Below are positions 1-5,694 of a DNA stretch of 5,694 nt, piece by piece (the first letter of the stretch is position 1; every line of letters begins with the position of its first letter). Source of the stretch: a virus (taxonomy: Duplodnaviria; Heunggongvirae; Uroviricota; Caudoviricetes); the IMG/VR virus record IMGVR_UViG_2671180846_000022. One strand, written 5' to 3'. A program made the translations under genes and the position numbers. Below the pieces are notes generated by a model. That model had not been told where the DNA came from. It saw nothing but the letters and a program-made list of their open reading frames with translations, and made no database searches.

Positions 1-1
1 G

Positions 2-502
2 CGCATGATGGGGCGCGCCGGTGGGTTACTTTCGTCTGTCGGTAGCCGCATGGGGCTGGGGCGTTTCTCCGGCTTTTTCCGCAGTGCCGGTGGACTGGCC
101 GGCCGGCTGGGTGGAGGTGCCCTGTGGGCTGGCGCGATGGCAGCCCCGGTTCTGCTGGATGGCAGCGCCAGTGCCACAGACAAGGGAGAAGCGGTCGGCT
201 CTCTTGCAGGCAGTATTGCCGGTGGTGCGCTGGGGGCGGCAGCCGGACCTGTGGGGATTGCCATTGGTTCTACGGTGGGCAGCTATCTCGGTAACTATCT
301 GGGGGGATGGCTGACTGAAGCCTGGCAGAAATTACGGGGCAGTGATGATGAAAGCAGTGGACAGGCGGTACAAAAAGCCTCTGCCCGTGTGGAGCTGGTT
401 GCCCCGGAAGGGTGGCAGGCTCGCAGTATTGATATTGATGACACGTCCGGTCACGGACTGGATGTGAATGTCTGGAACGGAGGGAATTATGGCCTCTGGT
501 GA
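2..502 (+). CDS. Phage tail tape measure protein, C-terminal fragment (5' end lies upstream of the window)
   Basis: The reading frame is open from the first in-frame codon at position 2 and stops at TGA 500-502. The product is Gly/Ala-rich with small-residue repeats (GGALGAAAGPVGIAIGSTVGSYLGNYLGGWL), typical of tape measure C-termini. It sits immediately upstream of the DNA circulation gene, as in Mu (gp42 then gp43). Assignment rests on composition and synteny, not a confirmed homology hit. Confidence 0.6.
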   Translation, partial: RMMGRAGGLLSSVGSRMGLGRFSGFFRSAGGLAGRLGGGALWAGAMAAPVLLDGSASATDKGEAVGSLAGSIAGGALGAAAGPVGIAIGSTVGSYLGNYLGGWLTEAWQKLRGSDDESSGQAVQKASARVELVAPEGWQARSIDIDDTSGHGLDVNVWNGGNYGLW

Positions 503-1838
503 CGGTCGTGGTGCGTTCCGTGGTGTGCCGTTCCTCGTCTGGCGTGAGCAGCGCGAACGTGGTGGGCGAAACATTGTCCGTCGGGAATATCCGTTACGGG
601 AAACCGGTGGTGCAGACGATCTGGGACCTAAACTGGCTGAATTTACGTTCAGTGTACTTGTGATGGGGGATGATGTTCAGACACAGCGAAATCGTCTGCG
701 TGATGCCCTTCGTGCTCCCGGTGCCGGGGAGCTGCTTCACCCGGATTACGGCACGTTAAATGTGCTGATAAACAGCTTTGAAAGTCGTTATAACGCCGCT
801 GAACAGGGCGTGGTTGAGTTCACCATTAATGTCACGCCGGTAAGTGATGATACCGCACCTGCTGTCACACAGGACACGGCCGCCATTCTGGAGCAGAAGA
901 GTACCACCGCGCTCGGGCAGGTTTTTGAAACCCTGGAAGCGGGCTGGACGGTGATCTCTGACGGAATGCACGATGTCCAGGCAATGACCGAAACCATCAG
1001 TGATAAGGTGTCCGCCCTGGAAAATGCCGTTTCCGGCATGGGGATTGTACAGGATATCAGTGCCTTTACTGCCACGTTCACGGCGCTGAAAGGGAATGCC
1101 ACGGCATTACTGACAGCACCTTCCCGCATGGCCTCATCTTTTGCGGGGCTTTTCAGTGCCCTGATCACCCTGCCATCGCTGCCGTCACTGTCTTCAGGAG
1201 GCCTGAATACCCGGCCCGGTGGCAGTATCGGCCGGACGACATCCGCCGTCTCTCAGGGAATGCCGCAACTGTACAGGACATTATCTTCCCTGCGTTACGT
1301 GCTGGATGAGCAGGATAATCCGCAGACTCTCATCGGTCTGACACCGGCAGCACAAAAGAATATTCGTCTGATACGGGCGGTAATGCAGAGTGCTGCCGTG
1401 GTGGCCCAGGCACAGACCGTGGGAAAACTGCTGGATCAGGTTCTCAGTCAGGAAACCCTGCCGGACAGTGACGCAGCCCACCGTACCTGGCCTGTCTGGC
1501 TGGAAAGTTCAGTTGATCTTCAGCGCATTAACCGTGACTTAAGCGAAGCGCTCGAACGGCAGGTGATGACACTGTCCGGGCAGGGGTATACCGCCACGGC
1601 GCTGACGCTTCGTGATGCCAGACTGGCACTGACAGAGGATCTGAATACACGGGGAGTTCAGCTACCCGGTGCAACAGTAGTGACTGTACGTACCACCGAG
1701 CCTGCACTGGTGACCCTGTACCGTGCCACCGGGAACAGTACCGGCTGGCAACGTTTTGTGCGCCGTAACGGTATTGTTGATCCGCTGTTCATTCCCGGAG
1801 GCCATTCAGTGGAGGTGATTAGTGAGCAGCAGGGTTGA
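489..1838 (+). CDS. Phage DNA circulation protein (Mu gp43/N-like, DNA_circ_N family)
   Basis: The ORF 468-1838 is 456 aa. The preferred start is ATG 489 (MASGDGRGAFRGVPF...), preceded by GGAGGG at 479-484; the alternative ATG at 468 has no obvious Shine-Dalgarno sequence. The N-terminal FRGVPF motif and a length of about 450 aa fit Mu N-like proteins. It overlaps the upstream stop by 14 nt. Confidence 0.75.
   Translation: MASGDGRGAFRGVPFLVWREQRERGGRNIVRREYPLRETGGADDLGPKLAEFTFSVLVMGDDVQTQRNRLRDALRAPGAGELLHPDYGTLNVLINSFESRYNAAEQGVVEFTINVTPVSDDTAPAVTQDTAAILEQKSTTALGQVFETLEAGWTVISDGMHDVQAMTETISDKVSALENAVSGMGIVQDISAFTATFTALKGNATALLTAPSRMASSFAGLFSALITLPSLPSLSSGGLNTRPGGSIGRTTSAVSQGMPQLYRTLSSLRYVLDEQDNPQTLIGLTPAAQKNIRLIRAVMQSAAVVAQAQTVGKLLDQVLSQETLPDSDAAHRTWPVWLESSVDLQRINRDLSEALERQVMTLSGQGYTATALTLRDARLALTEDLNTRGVQLPGATVVTVRTTEPALVTLYRATGNSTGWQRFVRRNGIVDPLFIPGGHSVEVISEQQG
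1811..1815 (+). promoter_or_regulatory. Shine-Dalgarno sequence (GGAGG) for the hub gene GTG start
   Basis: GGAGG lies 6 nt upstream of GTG 1822, inside the 3' end of the DNA circulation gene. Confidence 0.55.
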
Positions 1839-2946
1839 ACTGTATCTGGGCGGTGAGATTTTTTCCGGCTGGCTGACGGTGAGTGTTCGTCGCTCTCTTG
1901 AACATCTGGCGGGCTCCTTTGAACTGGGGGTAATGATGCCCGGTGTACGCCTTCCGTCATCCGTCCGTGCCGGTCAGTCTCTGGAATTGCGCATTGACGG
2001 TCAGCCTGTGATCACTGGCTGGCTGGATCAGGTCCGGCAGCGCATCAGCGCCACGCGTTTTCAGATCACGCTCAGCGGACGGGATAAAACCGGTGACCTG
2101 GTGGACTGTTCAGCCATTCATCCGGGCAGCCAGTGGAGGAACCGCACGCTGGAGCACATTGCTTCAGATTTGTGTGCTCCGTTCGGGGTCACGGTGCGCT
2201 GGCAGGTAAATGATGCAACGGCAGCCCGGCCCTTTTCCACCTTCACACTGGAAAATTCAGAAACCGTGGCAGATGCGCTGACACGGGCCGCGAGACACAG
2301 AGGCGTCCTGGTAACCAGTAATGCCGCCGGTGAACTGGTTTTCACTCAGGCCGGCAGTCAGCGTGGCGACACGCTGACGCTGGGCGAAAATCTGCTGGAT
2401 TTGGATCACAACGTGGATCACCGTCTGCGCCACAGTGAATACCGTGTACGGGGGCACGGGCGTGGTGGTGGTCATGCCGGGGATGCACTGACAGCCGGAA
2501 CGCTGGCCGCACCCGTTGGTACGGTGACAGACAGTGCCATCCACCGTTACAGACCGAAAATTGTGCTGGCGGATCATGCTGTTGATGCAGACGGTGCACG
2601 CCAGAGGGCTGTCCGGGAAATGCGCCGGGCGGTTGCCCGCTCTGTGCGCCTGACAGCCACCGTGCGGCACTGGTTTCGGGAGAACGGCCAGTTGTGGGAT
2701 ATCAACCTGCTGACGGCTGTCACGGCTCCCCGCACCGGAGTGGAAGAGCGTGATCTTCTTGTCTGTCAGGTGGAGTTTTCGCTGGATGCAAATCACGGCG
2801 AAACCACCCGTCTGATTCTGGCACCCCGTGACGGCTTTATTGTTCCGGCAGAGCCGGGAAACAGCGGAAGCGGAAATGCGGGTGACGTGGACGCCTTCGT
2901 GCGGGCACAGATGAAAAAACAGGGGATTAAATTCAATGATGAATGA
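1822..2946 (+). CDS. Baseplate hub protein (Mu gp44/P-like; P2 gpD / Phage_GPD family)
   Basis: 374 aa ORF with a GTG start at 1822, preceded by GGAGG at 1811-1815 with a 6-nt spacer. It overlaps the upstream gene by 17 nt. Size and position match Mu gp44 (about 379 aa), directly upstream of the spike gene. Confidence 0.75.
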   Translation: MSSRVELYLGGEIFSGWLTVSVRRSLEHLAGSFELGVMMPGVRLPSSVRAGQSLELRIDGQPVITGWLDQVRQRISATRFQITLSGRDKTGDLVDCSAIHPGSQWRNRTLEHIASDLCAPFGVTVRWQVNDATAARPFSTFTLENSETVADALTRAARHRGVLVTSNAAGELVFTQAGSQRGDTLTLGENLLDLDHNVDHRLRHSEYRVRGHGRGGGHAGDALTAGTLAAPVGTVTDSAIHRYRPKIVLADHAVDADGARQRAVREMRRAVARSVRLTATVRHWFRENGQLWDINLLTAVTAPRTGVEERDLLVCQVEFSLDANHGETTRLILAPRDGFIVPAEPGNSGSGNAGDVDAFVRAQMKKQGIKFNDE

Positions 2947-3550
2947 CGAAGTCATCAGCCGCCTTCTGGCCCCCGTGATGCGGGGTGTTCGTCTGCTGTT
3001 CGGGCGTGGTGTACTGACCGGCACAACGGACACGCTGAAAATCCAGAATGTGCAAATCACCGGTATGGATGGTGAAACCTTTGATGACGTTGAACGCCCC
3101 CAGCAGTACGGGCAAATCAGCGTCCCCCTGCCTGGTGCGGAAGTTTTTCTGGCCTGTGCTGGCGGACAACGGGATCAGGCCGTGGTGCTTGTGGTGGAAG
3201 ACCGCCGCAGTCGCCCGACCGGACTTACCGCCGGAGATACCGGCGTGTATCACCATGAGGGGCACCGTATACGTCTGACAAAGAACGGCCGGATCATTGT
3301 GACCTGTAAGACGCTGGAGATTTACGCCGATGAAGGTGTTCAGGTGGATACACCGGAGGCTCACTTTACCGGTAATATCACAGTGGATAAGAACCTGCAT
3401 GTCAAAGGCAATGTGTCCATTGACGGCACCGGAAGATCACAGGGGGCGTTCACGATGTCCGAAGCGGTTATTGCCGGGATCACCTATTCAGGTCATGTGC
3501 ATCACGATAACGGTGAAGGCAGCAAAACGGGAGGACCAGAGAATGGCTGA
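2936..3550 (+). CDS. Baseplate central spike / baseplate assembly protein V (Mu gp45-like, gpV/gp5 OB-fold family)
   Basis: 204 aa ORF starting with tandem ATGs at 2936 and 2939. The length is about that of Mu gp45 and P2 gpV. The C-terminal region is beta-rich (GNITVDKNLHVKGNVSIDGTG) and ends in a His cluster (SGHVHHDNGEGS), consistent with a spike-tip metal-binding motif. It overlaps the hub gene stop by 11 nt. Confidence 0.75.
   Translation: MMNDEVISRLLAPVMRGVRLLFGRGVLTGTTDTLKIQNVQITGMDGETFDDVERPQQYGQISVPLPGAEVFLACAGGQRDQAVVLVVEDRRSRPTGLTAGDTGVYHHEGHRIRLTKNGRIIVTCKTLEIYADEGVQVDTPEAHFTGNITVDKNLHVKGNVSIDGTGRSQGAFTMSEAVIAGITYSGHVHHDNGEGSKTGGPENG
3529..3535 (+). promoter_or_regulatory. Shine-Dalgarno sequence (GGGAGGA) for the gp46-like gene
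   Basis: Purine-rich SD motif 7 nt upstream of ATG 3543, embedded in the 3' end of the spike gene. This is the arrangement expected for translational coupling. Confidence 0.6.
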
Positions 3551-3980
3551 TATTGCTGTCGTCTGGGATCAGGGTTGTGGTTCCCTGCAACTGAACGGCG
3601 CAGATCTTCTGACGGATAACAGCCTGCTGACTGCGGTCATTATTTCACTGTTTACGGACAGGCGGGCGCTGGATTCCGATGAAATCCCTGACGGCACCCG
3701 TGACCGTCGGGGATGGTGGGGAGACAGTTTCCGGGAGCGCCCCATTGGCTCCCGTCTCTGGCTGTTAAGCCGTGAAAAGACGCTGTCCTCCGTGGTCAGC
3801 CGTGCACAGGCCTATGCTGATGAAGCGCTGGCGTGGCTGCATAAAAGCGGTGCTGCCACATCCGTGGTATGTCATGCCATGCGTGTGGGGCATGATCGCC
3901 TTTCGCTTTCCGTGAAAATCACCCTGCCGGACGGAAGCAGACATCCGATGATTTTTTATGCTGATATGAAGGGGGAATGA
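3543..3980 (+). CDS. Baseplate wedge protein, GP46 family (Mu gp46-like, T4 gp25 / P2 gpW-like)
   Basis: The six-frame ORF runs 3330-3980, but the biologically plausible start is ATG 3543, preceded by a strong Shine-Dalgarno sequence GGGAGGA at 3529-3535 with a 7-nt spacer. That gives a 145 aa product (MADIAVVWDQGCGSLQLNGADLLTDNSLLTAV...), matching the size and N-terminus of GP46-family proteins. It overlaps the spike gene stop by 8 nt. Confidence 0.8.
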   Translation: MADIAVVWDQGCGSLQLNGADLLTDNSLLTAVIISLFTDRRALDSDEIPDGTRDRRGWWGDSFRERPIGSRLWLLSREKTLSSVVSRAQAYADEALAWLHKSGAATSVVCHAMRVGHDRLSLSVKITLPDGSRHPMIFYADMKGE

Positions 3981-5062
3981 TGCCTTATCAGCCCTTACCA
4001 CTGGCGCAACTGATCACACAGACACAACAGGATATCAGCCAGCGCCTGCCCGGTTCGCAGCCGGGCGTGAATGAAACCACCCTGAATGCCATTGCGTATG
4101 CACTGGCGGGTCTGTCAGCACAGGAGCATGAACATCTGGCCTGGATCTCCCGGCAGATAATTCCGACAGAAGCTGATGAAGCCGAACTCCTGAAACACTG
4201 CGCATTCTGGGGTGTCATCCGTAAACCGGCTTCCCGCGCTGACGGACCGGTACAACTGATGCTGACCACGGATGCAGGGATCACGGAAGGCGTACTCCTT
4301 CAGCGAAGCGATGGTGTTGTGTACCGCATCACCGGCTCTGCGACCGGAAAAGCCGGAACACTGAATGTTAATGTGGAGGCGGAAAGTGCGGGGCGCGCNG
4401 GAAATNCCCCGACCGGAACCCGCCTGTCCTTTATCACGCCACAGGCGGGCATCAACCAGACAGCCACGGTTACCGGCACGGGACTCACCGGTGGTGCGGA
4501 TGTGGAAACGGTGCCGGAGTTGCTGTCCAGGCTGGTATTCCGGGTACAGAACCCGCCATCAGGGGGAACACAGTATGATTTTGAACGCTGGGCACGGGAA
4601 GTACCGGGCGTGACGCGGGCATGGTGTAAGCCTGAATGGCCTGAGGCGGGTAGTGTTGGTGTGACTTTTGTTCAGGATAATAACCCTGACATTTTCCCCG
4701 GAGAAGGTGATGTGAAGCGGGTGGCGGATTATATCCGCAGTCATGATGATCCGGCGACGGGCCAGCCCGTTGGTCAGCCACTTGGGCCGACAATCAGCGT
4801 GTTTAAGCTGACCAATAAGCCGGTGGCGTTTGAGATCAGGATTGTACCCAAAACGCCGGAAAATCAGGCTGCCGTAAAACAGGCATTAACGGACCTGCTT
4901 TATAACGAATCGCGGCCGGGTGGACTTGTATTGCCTTCATCATTCTGGCGGGCTGTTGCAGGGGTGAAAGGACTGGAGGATTTTGAAGTTCGCAGTCCGC
5001 TGAAGTCCGTGATGGCCGGAGATACAGAGTTGCTGACCGTGGGGGAAATCACATGGCTGTAA
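3977..5062 (+). CDS. Baseplate J-like protein (Mu gp47-like, Baseplate_J family; T4 gp6 / P2 gpJ analogue)
   Basis: 361 aa ORF. The start is ATG 3977 (ATGA overlap with the upstream stop) or the adjacent ATG 3980; AAGGGGG at 3968-3974 favours 3980. Size and position immediately after the gp46-like gene match the baseplate J family. It contains two single ambiguous bases (N at 4399 and 4406) that do not break the frame. Confidence 0.8.
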   Translation: MMPYQPLPLAQLITQTQQDISQRLPGSQPGVNETTLNAIAYALAGLSAQEHEHLAWISRQIIPTEADEAELLKHCAFWGVIRKPASRADGPVQLMLTTDAGITEGVLLQRSDGVVYRITGSATGKAGTLNVNVEAESAGRXGNXPTGTRLSFITPQAGINQTATVTGTGLTGGADVETVPELLSRLVFRVQNPPSGGTQYDFERWAREVPGVTRAWCKPEWPEAGSVGVTFVQDNNPDIFPGEGDVKRVADYIRSHDDPATGQPVGQPLGPTISVFKLTNKPVAFEIRIVPKTPENQAAVKQALTDLLYNESRPGGLVLPSSFWRAVAGVKGLEDFEVRSPLKSVMAGDTELLTVGEITWL

Positions 5063-5361
5063 CCCTGACCCCGCATCAGCGNNNNNNNNNNNNNNNNNNN
5101 NNNNNNNNNNNNNNNNNNNNNNNNNNNNNNNGAGCGTGTTTCCTGGACCGGTAACCAGATGCTGGCAGAACGTTTTCCTGATTCATCCCGTCTGCTGCTG
5201 GAAGACTGGGAGCGTTATCTGGGGTTACCGGAATGTGATATGACCGGCGCAACCATTCAGGAACGTCAGCGTTATGCAGGGAATAAATACCGGATGAAAC
5301 CCTCTCTTAACCGTGAATTTTATATCCGGTTTGCGGCAGAGTTTGGTTATGAAATAGATAT
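5053..5361 (+). CDS. Tail/baseplate protein gp48-like (DUF2313, YmfQ-like), partial and interrupted by an N-run
   Basis: ATG 5053 (MAVTLTPHQ...) overlaps the gp47 stop by 10 nt. After the 50-nt N-run, the segment 5132-5361 reads ERVSWTGNQMLAERFPDSSRLLLEDWERYLGLPECDMTGATIQERQRYAGNKYRMKPSLNREFYIRFAAEFGYEIDI, resembling DUF2313/gp48 proteins. The frame before the gap (codons in register with 5053) and after it (codons in register with 5132) differ by one nucleotide, so the N-run length is not the true gap length. Confidence 0.6.
5082..5131. other. Run of 50 N (assembly gap or masked sequence) inside the gp48-like gene
   Basis: Directly visible in the sequence. The reading frame changes across it. 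Confidence 0.95.
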
Positions 5362-5440
5362 NNNNNNNNNNNNNNNNNNNNNNNNNNNNNNNNNNNNNNN
5401 NNNNNNNNNNNNNNNNNNNNNNNNNNNNNNNNNNNNNNNN
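5362..5440. other. Run of 79 N (assembly gap or masked sequence) between the gp48-like segment and the putative tail fibre N-terminus
   Basis: Directly visible in the sequence. The frame is preserved across it, but the true content is unknown. Confidence 0.95.
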
Positions 5441-5694
5441 CCGGCGCAGAGTAATACCACCACCTGGTTTACCGAAGGTGACGGACAAAAAGGTATCAGC
5501 TGGATTGGTCAGGACTGGCTGAATATTCTCCAGGCCGAACTGCTGAATATTCTGGCTGAAGCCAGTATTCAGCCGGATAAGGCGCAGTTAAACCAGCTTA
5601 CGCTGTCCATTAAAGCCATTATCGCTGCGAATGCCTTTTCCCGGAAAAACAACCTGAAAGAAATTGCTGATGCCGGTGCGGAAGCCCAGCGTCT
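5441..5694 (+). CDS. Probable tail fibre protein, N-terminal conserved region (start hidden in the N-run); alternatively the C-terminal continuation of the gp48-like gene
   Basis: Open frame with no stop to the window end, translating PAQSNTTTWFTEGDGQKGISWIGQDWLNILQAELLNILAEASIQPDKAQLNQLTLSIKAIIAANAFSRKNNLKEIADAGAEAQR. From memory this resembles the conserved N-terminal part of enterobacterial prophage tail fibre proteins. Position after gp48 matches Mu order (gp48 then tail fibre S). It is in the same frame as 5132-5361 across the 79-nt N-run, so a single longer ORF cannot be excluded. Confidence 0.4.

Follow-up and report, generated by a model that had tools for sequence, protein, structure and literature searches.

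Collapsed near-identical haplotypes as the probable source of placeholder gaps at the gp48/tail-fibre junction of an Sp18-type Mu-like prophage

Identity and gene content of the module

The stretch of DNA analysed here (5,694 nucleotides, hereafter the window) corresponds, as judged by sequence comparison, to the tail/baseplate module of a Mu-like prophage of the Sp18 type, carried by E. coli O157:H7 and by other STEC. It spans the end of the tape-measure gene, genes for a DNA circulation protein, baseplate proteins, gp46, gp47 and gp48, and the start of a tail-fibre gene. Of 5,426 complete E. coli genomes, 230 contain the region according to a megablast search with window positions 4700-5694, 186 of them at 99% identity or higher. 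The annotation at this locus in E. coli O157:H7 Sakai reads 'prophage Sp18, Mu-like phage', and 19 of the 5,563 compared positions distinguish the Sakai copy (L007) from the window (approximately 99.7% identity). The genes in the closed copies are arranged in the order tape measure, DNA circulation protein, baseplate assembly protein, baseplate V, gp46, baseplate J/gp47, YmfQ/gp48, tail fibre, tail-fibre assembly protein (on the opposite strand), serine recombinase and a DUF6645 protein. Sp18 of Sakai and its STEC relatives show the same order as the prophage in the window, through the gp45-like V to the invertase, such that the window is both nearly identical to and syntenic with the annotated Sp18. 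The haplotype of the window, however, belongs to the rarer L001/L034 type (approximately 22 of the 230 records in the gp48 region) as opposed to the Sakai type of Sp18, and it carries Ns where the closed Sp18-type copies have sequence. The nearest closed copy, that of strain OkiPb01711 (L034), is approximately 100% identical over window positions 1-4398 (4,398 nt). A published account lists Sp18 as predicted to be intact and describes an invertible host-specificity region in it (PMC2669165). The present analysis yields nothing new on the phage itself: descriptions already exist of this prophage, of its invertible host-range segment and of its mosaic variation.

The features of the last part of the window are the following (window coordinates; adding 1301 converts them to those of the closed copy at locus L001, up to the first gap).

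3977-5062, + strand: gp47 / baseplate J gene, 361 aa, complete (open reading frame list, Pfam, RefSeq); both single Ns lie inside it
4399: single N, corresponding to L001 5700; C or T in closed copies (G in divergent types), third codon position in gp47
4406: single N, corresponding to L001 5707; A in close copies, G in divergent family members
5053-5081, + strand: start of the gp48 gene (YmfQ / Phage_Mu_Gp48), namely ATG, codons 2-9 and 2 nt
5082-5131: N-run 1 (gap 1), 50 N standing for 94 nt of real sequence (L001 6383-6476, gp48 codons 10-41)
5132-5361, + strand: segment B, gp48 codons 42-117 and 2 nt, identical to closed copies of the L001, L002 and L034 types
5362-5440: N-run 2 (gap 2), 79 N standing for 258 nt of real sequence (L001 6707-6964)
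5441-5694, + strand: segment C, tail-fibre codons 18-101 and 2 nt, within the constant N-terminal part of the fibre

The product of the gene upstream of the gaps (window 3977-5059) matches the Pfam family Baseplate_J (PF04865, E = 1.6e-60), in agreement with the RefSeq label 'baseplate J/gp47 family protein' in closed copies. The gp48 start overlaps the gp47 end by 10 nt, and window positions 5053-5081 correspond to L001 6354-6382, the annotated start of a 'YmfQ family protein' coding sequence.

Reading frames across the two N-runs

The segments that flank the gaps, namely A (4407-5081), B and C, are found letter for letter in closed chromosomes (loci L001 and L002), and comparison with these copies demonstrates, at the sequence level, that both N-runs are scaffolding placeholders of wrong length. 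Before gap 1, the gp48 frame opens with the ATG at 5053 in phase 1 (MAVTLTPHQ); after it, the only open frame starts at 5132 in phase 2 (ERVSWTGNQ...), a shift of +1. The initial annotation had noticed this one-nucleotide shift and had taken the 50-nt run to be a placeholder and not the true length; both statements agree with the closed genomes, where 94 nt are present, the gp48 frame is therefore continuous and the shift is artificial. The repaired gp48 is an uninterrupted open reading frame of 186 aa (L001 6354-6914), located immediately downstream of and overlapping gp47, and matches Phage_Mu_Gp48 (PF10076, E = 2e-22).

The second gap hides gp48 codons 118-186 with the stop, a TAATG overlap of stop and start codons, and tail-fibre codons 1-17. 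From 5441, a frame (PAQSNTTTWF...) is open to the window end without a start codon, as would be expected from the earlier description of this region as a tail-fibre N-terminus lacking its start. The missing ATG lies inside gap 2, 51 nt before segment C, which therefore opens at codon 18; the fibre gene starts at L001 6914, with its ATG overlapping the TAA of gp48, and the repaired fibre N-terminus reads MFHVDNNSGVANMPELA followed by PAQSN.... The fragment present in the window aligns with the PHROGs tail-fibre family phrog_1833 at E = 3e-48, starting at profile position 18, and the full 303-aa fibre protein matches the same family with E = 3e-164; a Pfam search with the 303-aa protein gave no match. 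Re-translation, which the initial annotation had put forward as a check, yields in the closed genomes a gp48 that is contiguous to its stop and a directly overlapping fibre ATG. The frame break and the missing start codon are artefacts of the placeholder Ns, given that the closed copies have 94 and 258 nt in these places.

A literal reading of the N-run lengths would imply a degraded prophage with a frameshifted or partly deleted gp48. Indeed, 50 nt in gap 1 do break the frame, and frameshifted tail genes exist in some copies, for example in JE86-ST05. Against this, Ns denote unknown bases and scaffold gap sizes are estimates, the flanks are 100% identical to intact copies, and none of the aligned copies, close or divergent, has a deletion there, which leaves degradation with hardly any credibility. 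The N-run lengths themselves (50 and 79) show no consistent relationship with a k-mer offset, the real lengths exceeding them by 44 and 179 nt, respectively. Searches of viral, genome and metagenome collections for N-run 1 with its flanks did not yield the source scaffold, and among 16 IMG/VR contigs, from a search with a 41-mer of segment B, none contains Ns or is that scaffold. The main significance of these observations lies in curation: neither the apparent gp48 frameshift nor the seemingly absent fibre start should lead to annotation as a pseudogene, and closed genomes with identical flanks supply the sequence for a repair of the region.

An invertible segment beyond the window

The initial annotation had pointed out that in Mu-like and P2-like phages the gp48/tail-fibre junction leads into a host-range region where invertible segments of the Gin/Pin/Cin type are common, and a Gin-type segment is indeed present, and flips, among the closed copies of this phage family. 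Comparison of the copies at loci L001 and L013 reveals an exact inversion of L001 7439-8874, with 100% identity in the reverse orientation. The segment is bounded by inverted repeat arms (L001 7439-7617 and 8696-8874) and by gix-like 26-bp sites (L001 7431-7456 and 8857-8882), the left one of which agrees with the Mu gix sequence in 23 of its 26 positions. Of the 20 closed copies compared, three (L010, L013 and L036) are flipped, such that inverted crossover sites and both orientations are found in the closed relatives. The adjoining serine recombinase (L001 8937-9497, outside the window) contains a Resolvase domain (PF00239, E = 1.4e-51) and an HTH_7 domain (PF02796, E = 1.7e-14), and the tail-fibre assembly protein of the closed copies belongs to the Pfam family Caudo_TAP. 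This arrangement in the closed relatives resembles the Mu G segment with Gin, P1 Cin, e14 Pin and Salmonella Hin in that a serine invertase lies beside an invertible block of approximately 1.4 kb. As in Gin-type systems, this block holds the variable fibre C-terminus and the tail-fibre assembly gene between inverted 26-bp sites and occurs in both orientations. Unlike such systems, the window itself contains none of the inversion parts.

The possibility has to be considered that the gaps were caused by this inversion or by another rearrangement at the gp48/tail-fibre junction. The invertase, the gix-like sites and the two orientations among closed copies are compatible with such a cause, and L001 7436-7600 is where some draft contigs break off or change orientation. 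However, the invertible block lies beyond both the window and the gaps: the left crossover site is located 213 nt past the last base of the window (L001 7218) and 467 nt past gap 2, and neither a crossover site nor invertible DNA was found inside window positions 5053-5694 or in the sequence hidden by the gaps. Moreover, the gap regions are collinear, in the same orientation and of constant length in nearly all aligned copies, flipped or unflipped, with slight length differences in the most divergent allele types only, and the breaks at L001 6383, 6476, 6707 and 6964 are inexplicable by inversion. Inversion as the cause of the gaps is thus excluded on position, and a rearrangement of any kind at the junction appears very improbable; the earlier suggestion that the gaps may reflect structural heterogeneity, through inversion or alternative junctions, is not supported. 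Between allele types, the gap regions differ by clusters of point substitutions, and the heterogeneity at this junction is probably allelic and not structural.

Gap edges at polymorphic sites

An alignment of ten close closed copies, extended to the wider family for L001 5707, indicates that the edges of the gaps coincide with variable positions. The edge bases of gap 1 (L001 6383, C/T; 6476, G/A) and of gap 2 (6707, T/C; 6964, T/A) are all polymorphic, L001 5700 (the N at window 4399) varies among the ten close copies, and 5707 (the N at window 4406) is A or G in the wider family. The base preceding the window (L001 1301) is A in OkiPb01711 and G elsewhere, and the window ends one base before the polymorphic site L001 7219. 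All eight contig or N boundaries thus fall on sites that differ between haplotypes, although the two ends of the window would carry no weight if it had been cut from a longer scaffold at arbitrary points. At the local SNP density of 2.4%, the probability that the four gap edges and the window end all fall on variable sites by chance is approximately 8e-9, and 200,000 random placements of gaps with the same lengths included no such case. The interior of gap 2 contains 8-12 SNPs between the two main allele groups. In a graph assembler, a unitig shared by two haplotypes ends exactly at the base beside a variant, so the coincidence of edges and SNPs is the hallmark of reads that derive from two haplotypes.

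Several trivial causes of the gaps were examined. The hidden sequence contains no tandem repeats and no significant direct or inverted repeats, and its GC content in 100-nt windows is 39-65%, which rules out low complexity, repeats and extreme GC. A second, paralogous occurrence of the gap sequences was likewise rejected for typical E. coli genomes because these sequences are single-copy in most carriers (median of 1 place per genome). Ordinary coverage dropout or read-quality gaps in a single prophage haplotype, which would make the N-runs uninformative on heterogeneity, would be in keeping with the arbitrary lengths of the N-runs, the usual output of any paired-end scaffolder, and with the fact that no sampled haplotype pair reproduces every boundary. 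Dropout nevertheless appears improbable considering that the N-run edges, the single Ns and the window ends all lie exactly on known variable sites, that segments B and C are shared unitigs of two natural haplotypes (see below), and that the hidden sequence is of normal GC and lacks repeats and low complexity. Hence, with regard to the earlier suggestion that real structural heterogeneity, and not just low coverage, underlies the gaps, the heterogeneity is very probably real, as all N edges lie on polymorphic sites, but it is not of the structural kind.

Partial reproduction of the boundaries from natural haplotypes

The explanation that we consider probable is that the N-runs are wrong-length placeholders over intact genes of a known Mu-like prophage and that the gaps arose from the collapse of two near-identical haplotypes. 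The reads would have contained two, or perhaps more, nearly identical prophage haplotypes that were the same over most of the module, with substitutions clustering in gp48 and the fibre N-terminus. From such reads, a graph-based assembler would have retained the long stretches free of SNPs as contigs, lost the short-read pieces of up to 92 nt between neighbouring SNPs and written N at two close SNPs, and a scaffolder would have bridged the remainder with N-runs of estimated length. The window resembles collapsed near-identical repeats in de Bruijn assemblies in that its kept segments are maximal SNP-free stretches, the pieces between close SNPs are absent from it and its gap sizes are only estimates.

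For the pair L034 (OkiPb01711) x L002 (CV261), of which L034 represents the window's own haplotype, a de Bruijn graph was constructed with k = 31, 55 and 77. The SNP-free blocks of at least 100 nt in this pair are L001 1302-4677, 4748-6445, 6477-6706 and 6965-7218, and the shared unitigs at all three values of k are the same four blocks. Inside the gaps, the graph contains only pieces of up to 92 nt, and within 7219-7491 there is none of 100 nt or longer. Segment B is the shared unitig 6477-6706 of L034 and L002. In all, the pair recovers five of the eight boundaries with single-base precision, namely the first base of the window, both limits of segment B and both limits of segment C, which ends with the window.

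The remaining predictions of this pair deviate from the window. The left edge of gap 1 is predicted at 6446 (segment A extending to 6445) and observed at 6383 (segment A ending at 6382), the single Ns at 5700 and 5707 are not predicted, and SNPs are predicted at 4678 and 4747, where the window has plain bases. No sampled haplotype pair yields all eight boundaries. T at 6383 is present in L004, L010, L012, L016, L023, L030 and L032, and the two rare alleles at the inner gap edges, 6476=A and 6707=C, do not occur together in any closed copy. The fully predicted partner, with 6383=T on an L002-type background, is absent from the 5,426 closed genomes, the best match having one mismatch; it would be an unsampled recombinant, which is plausible and fits the mosaicism of this region. 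A divergent partner of the L021 type, identical from 6346 onwards, was discarded, as segments B and C would then be broken at 6608/6623 and from 6997 onwards. The treatment of SNPs by the assembler seems inconsistent, with two single Ns (5700 and 5707) and breaks elsewhere, a difference from collapsed repeats that counts against collapse.

Two prophage copies in one genome as the likely source

Most likely, the two haplotypes would correspond to two copies of the Mu-like prophage in one genome. Multiple carriage is found among the closed genomes. In 2013C-3252, two near-identical copies are located at 1.01 and 4.24 Mb (3.2 Mb apart); over 8.7 kb, they are distinguished by 3 substitutions and by 2 alignment gaps of one base each. 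FHI_NMBU_11 carries non-identical copies at 0.51 and 3.57 Mb that are identical across L001 2303-6296 and differ at 6297, 6383, 6608, 6623, 6749-6964 and from 7219 on. For F1273 and Show KS 470-1, two separate searches returned different best coordinates, which we take as two copies. In total, approximately 45 extra places were counted among 227 carrier genomes, so that multi-copy carriage is plausible. For the Mu-like prophage, integration sites that are specific to the strain have been reported, and it has been described as able to transpose (PMC7430833).

Alternatively, the haplotypes might stem from a mixed culture, from pooled isolates or from a metagenome and not from two copies in one chromosome. 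Several allele types are in circulation within the same hosts, such as bovine STEC, and the exact partner haplotype is found in no closed genome, with or without a second copy. With respect to the nearest closed genome, a chimeric probe found no second copy in OkiPb01711, so that any such copy there is not L002-like. We regard a mixture as unlikely, albeit worth keeping in mind, since at least four closed genomes carry two copies of the prophage, with allele differences of just such a kind in FHI_NMBU_11, and a mix of whole strains would give ambiguity elsewhere too, beyond one window. N-runs with edges on known SNPs give a cheap, read-free indication that two copies of a mobile element have collapsed in a draft assembly; here, the pattern hints at double lysogeny by a transposable Mu-like phage.

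Mosaic variation at the junction

Recombination mosaics, which had also been proposed for this junction, are borne out in the form of point-substitution alleles and not as rearrangements. Some allele types are approximately 16% divergent up to L001 6345 and near-identical afterwards; others are near-identical up to 6706 and approximately 27% divergent from 6707. In the copies Z1825, Z1826 and Z869, window-like upstream sequence is joined to a gp48/fibre region of the L002 type. A more specific version of the collapse, namely that a single strain carried two Sp18-type prophages with differing gp48/fibre alleles, one of them an unseen recombinant with 6383=T and 6707=C on an L002-like background, is tentative and, taken in full, rather unlikely. 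Were it correct, the mosaic boundaries at approximately 6345-6383 and at 6707, together with the island 6965-7218, would mark exchange hot spots at which co-resident Mu-like prophages swap host-range modules, in addition to Gin-type inversion. This island is segment C itself, a 254-nt stretch that is invariant in nearly all close alleles and lies between SNP-dense stretches.

Assembly breaks and prophage copy number

In the coordinates of the reference prophage locus L001, the window starts at 1302 and the unrelated IMG/VR draft contig IMGVR_UViG_2529292909_000005 has its first base at 1303, so that two independent assemblies break at practically the same base of the tape-measure gene. The base immediately preceding the window (L001 1301) is A in the closest relative, OkiPb01711, and G in all others. 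The following positions are listed for the shared start point:
window position 1 (L001 1302)
position 1 of locus L021

The second N-run (window 5362-5440), at the end of gp48 and the start of the fibre gene, is bracketed, one on each side, by the ends of two independent IMG/VR draft contigs: L016 ends at L001 6676, approximately 30 nt within the segment between the two N-runs, and L019 ends at L001 6996, approximately 30 nt within the segment following the second. These contig ends suggest that this stretch also breaks short-read assemblies from other isolates.

In several closed STEC genomes the Mu-like prophage is present as two full copies at loci far apart:
NZ_CP027442.1 (loci L014 and L015)
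NZ_CP045712.1 (L032 and L033)
NZ_CP038376.1
NZ_CP038309.1

The copies within a genome range from nearly identical (3 substitutions in 8.7 kb) to clearly distinct allele sets. One of the two FHI_NMBU_11 copies (L033, at 3.56 Mb) may be defective because its tape-measure gene, annotated as frameshifted, lacks 22 nt near its end (equivalent to L001 1437-1458).

In gp47, isolated single Ns occur at window positions 4399 and 4406, 7 nt apart, such that the translation reads GRXGNXPTG versus GRAGNTPTG in closed copies. Both fall on sites that vary across the prophage family (C/T/G and A/G, respectively), which fits the same probable origin as for the N-runs, namely collapse of two near-identical prophage versions in a short-read assembly.

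Mosaicism and rearrangement around the tail fibre gene

Sharp mosaic switch points are located at about L001 6345-6383 and at 6707. In loci L017, L019, L021, L029 and L031, divergence of approximately 16% gives way to near-identity around 6346. In L005, L024 and L027, near-identity ends at 6707, where divergence rises to approximately 27%; this position coincides with the left edge of the second N-run. The fibre N-terminus (L001 6965-7218, window 5441-5694) is a 254-nt stretch without variation in almost all close alleles, flanked by SNP-dense sequence (8-12 SNPs in the preceding 258 nt and 18 in the following 212 nt); the stretch may be under constraint as a baseplate-docking region, or it may act as a recombination linker.

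Beyond the window lies a working Gin-type switch (L001 coordinates):
7431-7456 and 8857-8882, 26-bp gix-like sites
7439-8874, invertible block
8937-9497, serine invertase of 186 aa

Both orientations of the block are found among closed genomes, with the flipped form in 2012C-4502, AUSMDU00014361 and Z869; inversion exchanges the fibre C-terminus and moves the assembly gene to the same strand.

We also observe an IS66-like element, ISEc43, inside the tail module in two closed genomes (strains 23CRST047 and 23CRST049), where the module matches in two pieces with a total span of about 6.9 kb.
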